Shown: one piece after another, positions 19,484 through 20,481 of the stretch
How positions within the stretch are numbered: the first letter of the stretch is position 1
Layout of the letters: each line of letters begins with the position of its first letter
Sequence record: PQ511149.1
From: Escherichia phage NHEP11
DNA length: 64,000 nt
Strand: one strand, 5' to 3'
The notes under the pieces: model-generated
The model's database searches: none
What the model was told of the DNA's origin: nothing
The model's input: only the letters and a program-made list of their open reading frames with translations
Position numbers and translations under genes: made by a program

Positions 19484-19528
19484 ATTATTTCCTCATTAGT
19501 TAATTCATTCTATCATCCGTTTATAAAG

Positions 19529-19553
19529 CAAAAAAGGAACTCCGAAGAGTTCC
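19529..19553 (-). terminator. rho-independent terminator upstream of gene 47
   Basis: Minus-strand RNA forms GGAACUC-UUCG-GAGUUCC followed by UUUUUU. Confidence 0.6.
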
Positions 19554-19726
19554 TATCCACATAGTACGCCGTACAGAGGCTCATTTGAACTTTTAAATCG
19601 AATGGGCTTGTATGTAATAGTTCCTTCGGCTTTAGCTTTATCATAAGACTCTTTAAAACGTCTCATTCTTTCTGCTTTGCCTTTACGGATTTTATCGAAA
19701 TTTTCAGAAGTCGGGATGTTCGTCAT
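19553..19726 (-). CDS. small ORF (about 57 aa), below ORF-track threshold
   Basis: Hand translation MTNIPTSENFDKIRKGKAERMRRF...; GAGGTG SD-like sequence upstream; stop abuts the terminator hairpin. Confidence 0.35.
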   Translation of the reverse strand: MTNIPTSENFDKIRKGKAERMRRFKESYDKAKAEGTITYKPIRFKSSNEPLYGVLCG

Positions 19727-19765
19727 GCATAAGCACCTCTCAGAAAATGCCTAAATCGATTTCTC

Positions 19766-19987
19766 TCATCGTTTCCACCATTTCTTAACTTGAAATGAAT
19801 CAACCCACACGAGTTGTTTTGGGTCTGCCTTTACAATAGGTGGACAAACTTCTGTAATAGAACCGTCGTGGTATTCCTTTTCAGAGATTTTAACACAAAG
19901 AGGACCTCCCAATTTAAGGGTGAATCCTGCATTCAGATTAAGACGTTTAAACTTTGTTTGAACTAGTGCCATTAATGATGTCCTCAA
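19766..19987 (-). CDS. hypothetical protein
   Basis: 73-aa ORF in the T4 alpha-gt position; start uncertain. Confidence 0.35.
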   Translation of the reverse strand: MRTSLMALVQTKFKRLNLNAGFTLKLGGPLCVKISEKEYHDGSITEVCPPIVKADPKQLVWVDSFQVKKWWKR

Positions 19988-20270
19988 TAGCCTGACGAGT
20001 AGTAATCCACTGGATTTTAATTAACTTGTCATTATATGGTTGTCGTAGAATATCCCGAGATTTCTTAATAGCATATTCGTAAGCTTCGAAGTTGTTTTGA
20101 ATTGCTGCTTCTTGAGCATGAGCATAAAGACGGTTTAGTTCAAAACGATTCTTTTTAAGAATCTTTTCGGATTTTTTACGTGCTTCAGCTTCATTTTTCC
20201 TTTGGATTTCTTGTAGCATTTTAGCTACTGCATCTTCTGCTTCTTTATTTTCAATAATCTCGGTAGTCAT
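19947..20270 (-). CDS. hypothetical protein
   Basis: 107-aa ORF, charged, coiled-coil-like. Confidence 0.45.
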   Translation of the reverse strand: MTTEIIENKEAEDAVAKMLQEIQRKNEAEARKKSEKILKKNRFELNRLYAHAQEAAIQNNFEAYEYAIKKSRDILRQPYNDKLIKIQWITTRQAIEDIINGTSSNKV

Positions 20271-20271
20271 A

Positions 20272-20481
20272 TTATCTCATTAAATTAAAATAAAAACGTC
20301 CGTCCTCTTCAATACAGAACTCGTACTCAACCGGAGTCCCATTTATCGAAAATGACACGTCATGTGGGTTCAAAGGGTCGATGTCAAAATTAATTTTAAA
20401 TTCACGACCCAACAGTTTTACCAAATAAGGGATTGCTTCGTCAAAAGGTTCTTCTAAGTAGTTAGAGATGTCAATTGTCAT
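20272..20481 (-). CDS. hypothetical protein
   Basis: Track ORF trimmed to the internal Met to avoid a 95-nt overlap with gene 55. Confidence 0.4.

Follow-up and report, generated by a model that had tools for sequence, protein, structure and literature searches.

Phage T4 carries its alpha-glucosyltransferase gene, a-gt, in the interval between gene 55 and gene 47, and we analysed the corresponding interval in a 64,000-nucleotide (nt) stretch of the genome of Escherichia phage NHEP11 (PQ511149.1), which is hereafter called the window. The interval (19484-20470) contains exactly four genes, all on the minus strand, encoding proteins of 57, 68, 107 and 71 amino acids (aa), and a-gt is not among them. 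Both observations agree with the original prediction, according to which a-gt was missing between genes 47 and 55 and the interval held "three or four" small open reading frames (ORFs) of 57-107 aa. The four genes are orthologues of a-gt.2 to a-gt.5 of T4, and with the predicted regulatory signals included the arrangement would be gene 55, a-gt.5, a-gt.4, a-gt.3, a-gt.2, a terminator, a middle promoter and gene 47 (Table 1). The start of a-gt.5 lies 17 nt inside the end of gene 55, and a-gt.3 and a-gt.4 overlap by 26 nt. Since the small genes abut or overlap, the interval has no space for a further gene, and their tight, overlapping packing indicates that they are probably translationally coupled. 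The flanking genes are well conserved, as the gene 55 product shows 89% aa identity to T4 gp55 and the gene 47 product 76% to T4 gp47, the latter with a ratio of non-synonymous to synonymous substitution rates (dN/dS) of 0.09.

Judged by its sequence, the window derives from a Mosigvirus, an RB69-like coliphage of the T4 type. About 146 complete genomes matched the 2.7 kb around the 55-47 interval and the first 25 kb of the window at 95-99% identity, at least 80% of the interval query being covered by 146 records. The nearest relatives, NHEP10, JN02, HY126 and PhAPEC2, are 97-99% identical to the window over these 2.7 and 25 kb. HX01 and mar005P1 were also among the matching genomes, and all of those with a taxonomy belong to Mosigvirus. 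NHEP10 (PQ511148.1) is the nearest complete genome; its bases 1-149,800 were searched, the remainder being covered by the window.

The short lengths of the four ORFs raise the question of whether they have arisen by chance or are annotation noise, in a non-coding spacer that a deletion had left behind, given that frames of 57-107 aa are common in an AT-rich genome. We give this reading hardly any probability at all. The products match curated families with E-values of 1e-12 to 1e-36: all four proteins match PHROG families (E 1e-24 to 1e-36), and the Pfam scores of three of them are 97.3, 95.9 and 48.3 bits against curated cut-offs of 25-27. Moreover, the order of the small genes is the same in T4, RB69, Dhakavirus JS98, Kanagawavirus PEi20 and Klebsiella phage Mineola (Jiaodavirus), each of which has an orthologue of every one, and the abutting and overlapping genes leave no spacer in which chance frames could lie. 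Identity to RB69 is 95% for a-gt.2, 97% for both a-gt.3 and a-gt.4 and 100% for a-gt.5, and the corresponding values for T4 are 74, 69, 54 and 49%. Compared with T4, dN/dS is 0.27 for a-gt.2, 0.19 for a-gt.3 and 0.22 for a-gt.4; for a-gt.5, where the synonymous sites are saturated, the proportions of non-synonymous (pN) and synonymous (pS) differences are 0.34 and 0.81, respectively. The four small ORFs are real genes that have been under purifying selection relative to T4.

With regard to what the four small proteins do, literature searches on a-gt.2 to a-gt.5, DUF2654, DUF5486 and DUF5491 yielded nothing beyond a table entry, which places mobB between a-gt and a-gt.2. The a-gt.2 family is present in 815 phage records, and its identity to the window protein drops to 56-62% in JS98, PEi20 and Karamvirus KMB20. 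One family match labels a-gt.2 a "head maturation protease" (phrog_17354, a match of 34 residues), which we treated as a propagated mis-annotation. A search of the PDB with a-gt.4 gave no solved relative, and the homologue search for a-gt.3 yielded only four clusters and an AlphaFold2 model with a predicted local distance difference test (pLDDT) score of 41.

The 69 nt that separate a-gt.2 from gene 47 are taken up by a terminator together with a promoter-like motif. The terminator hairpin consists of an 8-bp stem, a UUCG loop and a U6 tail, and its start falls within the stop codon of a-gt.2. Its RNA fold has an energy of -13.9 kcal/mol (z = -3.9), and none of 200 shuffled sequences folded equally well, so that the strong terminator that had been predicted here was recovered; PhAPEC2 and other records annotate a terminator at the same hairpin. 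In a three-way DNA alignment both the hairpin and the TGCTTTATAAA that follows it are kept in the window, RB69 and T4, although TGCTTTATAAA precedes mobB in T4 and gene 47 in RB69 and the window. The sequence at 19507-19530 fits the pattern of T4 middle promoters, in which a MotA box is followed by a -10 element. This motif, TGCTTTA-N11-13-TANNNT, occurs eight times in the window, where 0.92 occurrences would be expected by chance, with sites at 4128-4152, 7996-8021, 9302-9326, 19507-19530, 39673-39698 and 54086-54110 on the minus strand and at 12920-12945 and 52931-52955 on the plus strand. MotA itself is encoded beyond the window, and NHEP10 has the gene. It has previously been reported by Edgell et al. 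that mobB has an endonuclease-specific promoter in its upstream non-coding region, and that of seven such promoters five are middle and two are late (PMC2988022). We infer that the four small genes would lie at the end of the gene-55 transcription unit, with the hairpin terminating it, and that gene 47 would be re-started from the MotA-type middle promoter 5 nt downstream of it.

To place this arrangement, we compared the interval with that of other T4-type phages. RB69 (NC_004928, 38972-41536), the type member of Mosigvirus, has the same order and spacing of genes 47, a-gt.2, a-gt.3, a-gt.4, a-gt.5 and 55, as well as the same terminator and promoter-like sequence, and differs from the window by point differences only (about 1-5%). 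In T4 (NC_000866) the order is 55, a-gt.5, a-gt.4, a-gt.3, a-gt.2, mobB, a-gt, 47.1 and 47. The flanking genes, the four small genes, their order and their overlaps are thus shared between T4 and the window, whereas the distance from a-gt.2 to gene 47 is 2,283 bp in T4, where it accommodates the homing endonuclease gene mobB, a-gt and 47.1, as opposed to 69 bp in the window. The extra 2.3-kb block of T4 would accordingly be seen to sit between the putative middle promoter and gene 47. As T4 carries a-gt.2 to a-gt.5 besides a-gt, the small ORFs are no replacement for a-gt, and the notion that they stand in for it was not borne out.

The other genera differ in what they carry at this position. 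Mineola shares the order 55, a-gt.5, a-gt.4, a-gt.3, a-gt.2 and has a terminator before gene 47, but an a-gt that is 66% identical to that of T4 follows directly after a-gt.2, without mobB and 47.1, and the terminator comes after a-gt. JS98 has a-gt.5 to a-gt.2 plus 47.1 and no a-gt, and in PEi20 and KMB20 the interval consists of small genes only, again without a-gt; in KMB20 three small ORFs are annotated, compared to four in the window. Across the Tevenvirinae genera examined, an a-gt-free 55-47 interval is the commoner state. It should be underlined that homologues of b-gt and ba-gt are still found in phages of the Karamvirus type, CC31 among them (PMC6024577, Table 1). Because such phages keep these genes together with an a-gt-free slot, an empty slot alone is no evidence against glucose. 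The original prediction had taken the slot as support for a non-glucose modification: its observation that a-gt is absent holds, while the empty slot alone is not diagnostic, being found in Dhakavirus, Kanagawavirus and Karamvirus too.

Next we searched for glucosyltransferase genes by tblastn, the check that had been proposed along with the prediction. T4 a-gt, T4 b-gt, the T2-type ba-gt of RB27, T4 mobB and T4 47.1 served as queries against the window and bases 1-149,800 of NHEP10. Neither target contained a match below E 0.01 to any of the three glucosyltransferases, and for b-gt and ba-gt there was no match at E < 0.1 either, in line with the predicted lack of b-gt; no glucosyltransferase homologue was thus found in these sequences. 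The best E-value for a-gt (400 aa) in the window was 0.016, for a match at 50812-50991 covering 69 aa of the N-terminal domain of a-gt with 27.5% identity. We judged this match to be due to chance, since the ORF that carries it encodes 207 aa, has no Pfam domain and is too short for a GT-B enzyme. The 69 nt between a-gt.2 and gene 47 contain no remnant of a-gt. Among 50,697 phage records, those with an a-gt were from Tequatrovirus-type coliphages (identity of at least 90%), Klebsiella phages (about 66%), of which Mineola is the one that was checked, and a few more distant ones. Five ORFs of 315-333 aa at 29481-35924 on the minus strand were also considered as glycosyltransferases and rejected, as no such domain was found in them; one of them matches DUF7235, one is a weak match to P-loop/STAND NTPases and another resembles RlaP (RNA repair pathway DNA polymerase beta family).

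A different set of modification genes lies in the interval between uvsX and gene 43. Whereas this interval contains segA, b-gt, 42, imm and imm.1 in T4, it holds in the window a cluster of seven genes (3542-10090, minus strand) with 97-100% aa identity to the gp45-gp55 cluster of RB69, and the Pfam domains agree with this assignment (Table 1). RB69 has this cluster for arabinosyl-5-hydroxycytosine in the same interval. The RB69 record splits gp46/47 and gp52/53 through sequencing errors (PMC6024577, PMC13326640); both are single ORFs in the window, the second of them encoding 561 aa with Pfam matches to an NTP_transferase and a kinase-like domain. The thymidylate-synthase homologue occupies the position of T4 gene 42, yet is only 25% identical to T4 gp42, and it matches the PDB entries 9iqc/9ir2 over the full length (E 4.8e-161). 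T4 makes glucosyl-hydroxymethylcytosine by means of gp42, a-gt and b-gt, none of which has a close homologue in the window. Three of the MotA-type sites are located within the cluster, which suggests that the modification genes may be transcribed in the middle mode.

Table 1. Coordinates of the genes and predicted regulatory features of the window that are discussed in the text.
Feature	Position	Strand	Match or remark
Nucleotide kinase, RB69 gp45 homologue	3542-4090	-	98.9% aa identity; role per PMC13326640 Table 1
GT-B glycosyltransferase, 299 aa, RB69 gp46:47 homologue, proposed arabinosyltransferase 1	4092-4991	-	
Thymidylate-synthase homologue, 5-hydroxy-dCMP synthase (RB69 gp48)	4991-5707	-	98.7% identity; PF00303
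Peptidase-U32-like protein (RB69 gp50)	5985-7154	-	99.5% identity; PF01136
HAD-type phosphatase (RB69 gp51 / HY126 AfhF analogue)	7202-7588	-	98.4% identity; role per PMC13326640
Bifunctional sugar kinase/nucleotidyltransferase making UDP-arabinose (RB69 gp52:53, HY126 AfhE analogue)	7588-9273	-	99% identity
Arabinose-5-phosphate isomerase (RB69 gp55)	9455-10090	-	100% identity; PF01380 SIS domain
Gene 47, SbcD-like recombination nuclease subunit	18464-19483	-	phrog_100, E 1.6e-135; lower interval boundary
Predicted MotA-dependent middle promoter for gene 47	19507-19530	-	TGCTTTA, 11-nt spacer, -10 TAGAAT
Predicted intrinsic terminator	19535-19554	-	terminator scan; AGGAACTC-UUCG-GAGUUCCU then UUUUUU
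a-gt.2 orthologue, 57 aa	19553-19726	-	Pfam DUF5486, E 4.5e-28
a-gt.3 orthologue, 68 aa	19766-19972	-	phrog_1648, E 7e-34
a-gt.4 orthologue, 107 aa	19947-20270	-	DUF2654, E 1.6e-27
a-gt.5 orthologue, 71 aa	20272-20487	-	DUF5491, E 1.3e-12
Gene 55, late sigma factor	20471-21028	-	phrog_234, E 6.9e-68; upper interval boundary
207-aa ORF	50476-51099	-	no Pfam family; carries chance a-gt match

The GT-B fold of the 299-aa product of the cluster was confirmed. Its likeness to T4 a-gt and b-gt is visible at the level of the fold only, as hhalign comparison of its 59-member family with these two enzymes revealed no similarity (probability < 1%). A second transferase, of the RB69 gp3 type, lies outside the window between rIIA and gene 39 and is found in NHEP10 at 98.9% identity; NHEP11 itself presumably carries it as well. 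The structure 9iqz, a glycosyltransferase of phage HY126, has essentially the RB69 gp3 sequence. These distant GT-B relatives of a-gt in the genome are arabinosyltransferase candidates. Homologues of the 299-aa protein are also found in phages of Edwardsiella (PEi20, protein P0006, 71% identical), Yersinia (TG1, fHe-Yen9-01), Acinetobacter (Acj61, Acj9, Ac42, AbTZA1), Providencia, Pseudomonas (PspYZU05) and Serratia (92A1) as well as on numerous contigs from metagenomes, and a longer form of about 350 aa occurs among its more distant relatives.

The chemistry that goes with such a cluster has been described for close relatives. Thomas et al. (2018) reported that RB69 DNA has arabinose and not glucose, and that RB69 has no homologue of a-gt, b-gt or ba-gt (PMC6024577). 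Lee et al. (2026) showed that the base is 5-hydroxycytosine (5hoC) bearing one or two arabinoses; the synthesis of 5-hydroxydeoxycytidine monophosphate (5-hydroxy-dCMP) by RB69 gp48 was demonstrated experimentally, and gp46:47 and gp3 were proposed as the arabinosyltransferases (PMC13326640). In phage NP, another Mosigvirus, mono- and di-arabinosylated cytidine were found at a ratio of 1:4 (PMC13390438). Both mono- and di-arabinosylated 5hoC have in this way been demonstrated chemically for RB69, NP and HY126 DNA (PMC13326640, PMC13390438).

Taken together with these reports, we consider it very likely that the window comes from an RB69-type Mosigvirus that is devoid of a-gt and decorates its DNA with arabinosyl-5hoC instead of glucose. 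The synthase of the cluster would make 5-hydroxy-dCMP, the neighbouring genes would supply arabinose linked to uridine diphosphate (UDP), and the 299-aa GT-B transferase, together with the second one encoded outside the window, would add one or two arabinoses to 5-hydroxycytosine. A glucosyltransferase would not be needed because the phage would make no hydroxymethylcytosine. For this reading the gene identities, the synteny, the lack of a-gt, b-gt and ba-gt, the presence of the whole cluster and the GT-B fold come from the present analysis, and the chemistry and the enzyme activities come from the literature. The non-glucose modification put forward in the original prediction thus finds support in the RB69-type cluster, with its identities of 97-100%, and in the arabinose chemistry of the relatives. 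It follows from the comparison above that the uvsX-43 cluster, and not the empty a-gt slot, is the marker of the DNA chemistry.

Several points nevertheless weigh against this reading. The window amounts to 64 kb of the genome, so that the absence of glucosyltransferase genes from the other 105 kb is deduced from close relatives, and the virion chemistry likewise comes from RB69, NP and HY126 and not from NHEP11 DNA. The individual transferases of phage DLP3 were inactive on 5hoC DNA (PMC13326640), and for enzymes of the gp46:47 type the first arabinosyl transfer is a proposed role. With regard to the 55-47 interval, the functions of the terminator and the promoter are predictions made from the DNA sequence. 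UDP-arabinose is the presumed donor of the 299-aa transferase, and many of the proteins that rank closest to it in structure use UDP-glucose or UDP-N-acetylglucosamine (UDP-GlcNAc), which leaves some room for DNA that is still glucosylated by a divergent transferase such as this protein or the gp3 homologue. We regard this as very unlikely, since the transferase is clustered with an arabinose-5-phosphate isomerase, a sugar kinase/nucleotidyltransferase and a phosphatase, since the base-modifying enzyme is of the 5-hydroxy-dCMP synthase type, close to RB69 gp48 and remote from T4 gp42, and since arabinose and not glucose was found in the DNA of all three relatives (PMC6024577, PMC13390438, PMC13326640).

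How the slot came to be without a-gt is a question about the history of the locus and not about its present state. One scenario is secondary loss, in which the ancestor of Mosigvirus had a-gt between a-gt.2 and gene 47 and the gene was deleted after the switch to arabinosyl-5hoC. That a-gt sits in the identical slot in Tequatrovirus and in Jiaodavirus, with 66% aa identity, agrees with a gene that has long been resident there, and the 47.1 that JS98 has without a-gt might be what is left of a longer block. On the other hand, the slot is without a-gt in four genera examined (Mosigvirus, Dhakavirus, Kanagawavirus and Karamvirus), the junction is clean, with a terminator, a promoter and a ribosome-binding site within 69 nt and nothing left of a-gt, and the T4 block travels with the homing endonuclease gene mobB (PMC2988022). 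Loss is therefore a possible but rather doubtful history; the alternative is that a-gt was inserted later in the Tequatrovirus and Jiaodavirus lines.

The junction contains a-gt alone in Jiaodavirus and the set of mobB, a-gt and 47.1 in Tequatrovirus, and it is empty in Mosigvirus, Kanagawavirus and Karamvirus. One could imagine from this that the 69 nt between a-gt.2 and gene 47 act as a conserved "docking site" for the gain and loss of DNA-modification cassettes, and, linked to this, that a co-transcribed a-gt.5 to a-gt.2 cassette may have a role that is connected with gene 55 or with replication and recombination. Such a role would explain why a-gt.5 to a-gt.2 are retained in every genus, whatever its DNA chemistry. 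We regard both ideas as speculative and improbable.

For the present-day locus, an a-gt-free Mosigvirus with arabinosylated 5hoC is already a known finding: the gene order can be read from the annotated RB69 record, a 2018 study noted that RB69 has no homologues of a-gt, b-gt and ba-gt (PMC6024577), and work from 2025-2026 resolved the modification together with its cluster (PMC13326640, PMC13390438). What is useful in practice is the annotation, as the window can be labelled "Mosigvirus, arabinosyl-5hoC type" from its uvsX-43 cluster. This label matters because the DNA chemistry affects which restriction, CRISPR (clustered regularly interspaced short palindromic repeats) and type IV defence systems a phage escapes or triggers.

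Some further observations concern features away from the 55-47 interval. The Mosigvirus AV110 growth inhibitor Emp (Gp94) was considered and set aside, as its gene adjoins motA, outside the interval (bioRxiv 10.64898/2026.09.14.751387). NHEP10 carries a homing endonuclease gene on the plus strand (136911-137627) between 45.2 and gene 46, the product of which is 43% identical to T4 mobB in its N-terminus, whereas the window lacks it at the corresponding position (16257-16298). The mobile endonuclease at 45.2/46 is thus a presence/absence polymorphism among near-identical Mosigvirus genomes. The window has only two tRNA genes, tRNA-Arg(TCT) and tRNA-Met(CAT), at 53867-53943 and 53950-54023 on the minus strand. 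The same pair is found in other Mosigvirus records, and the figure for the T4-type phages listed in PMC13390438 is 10.

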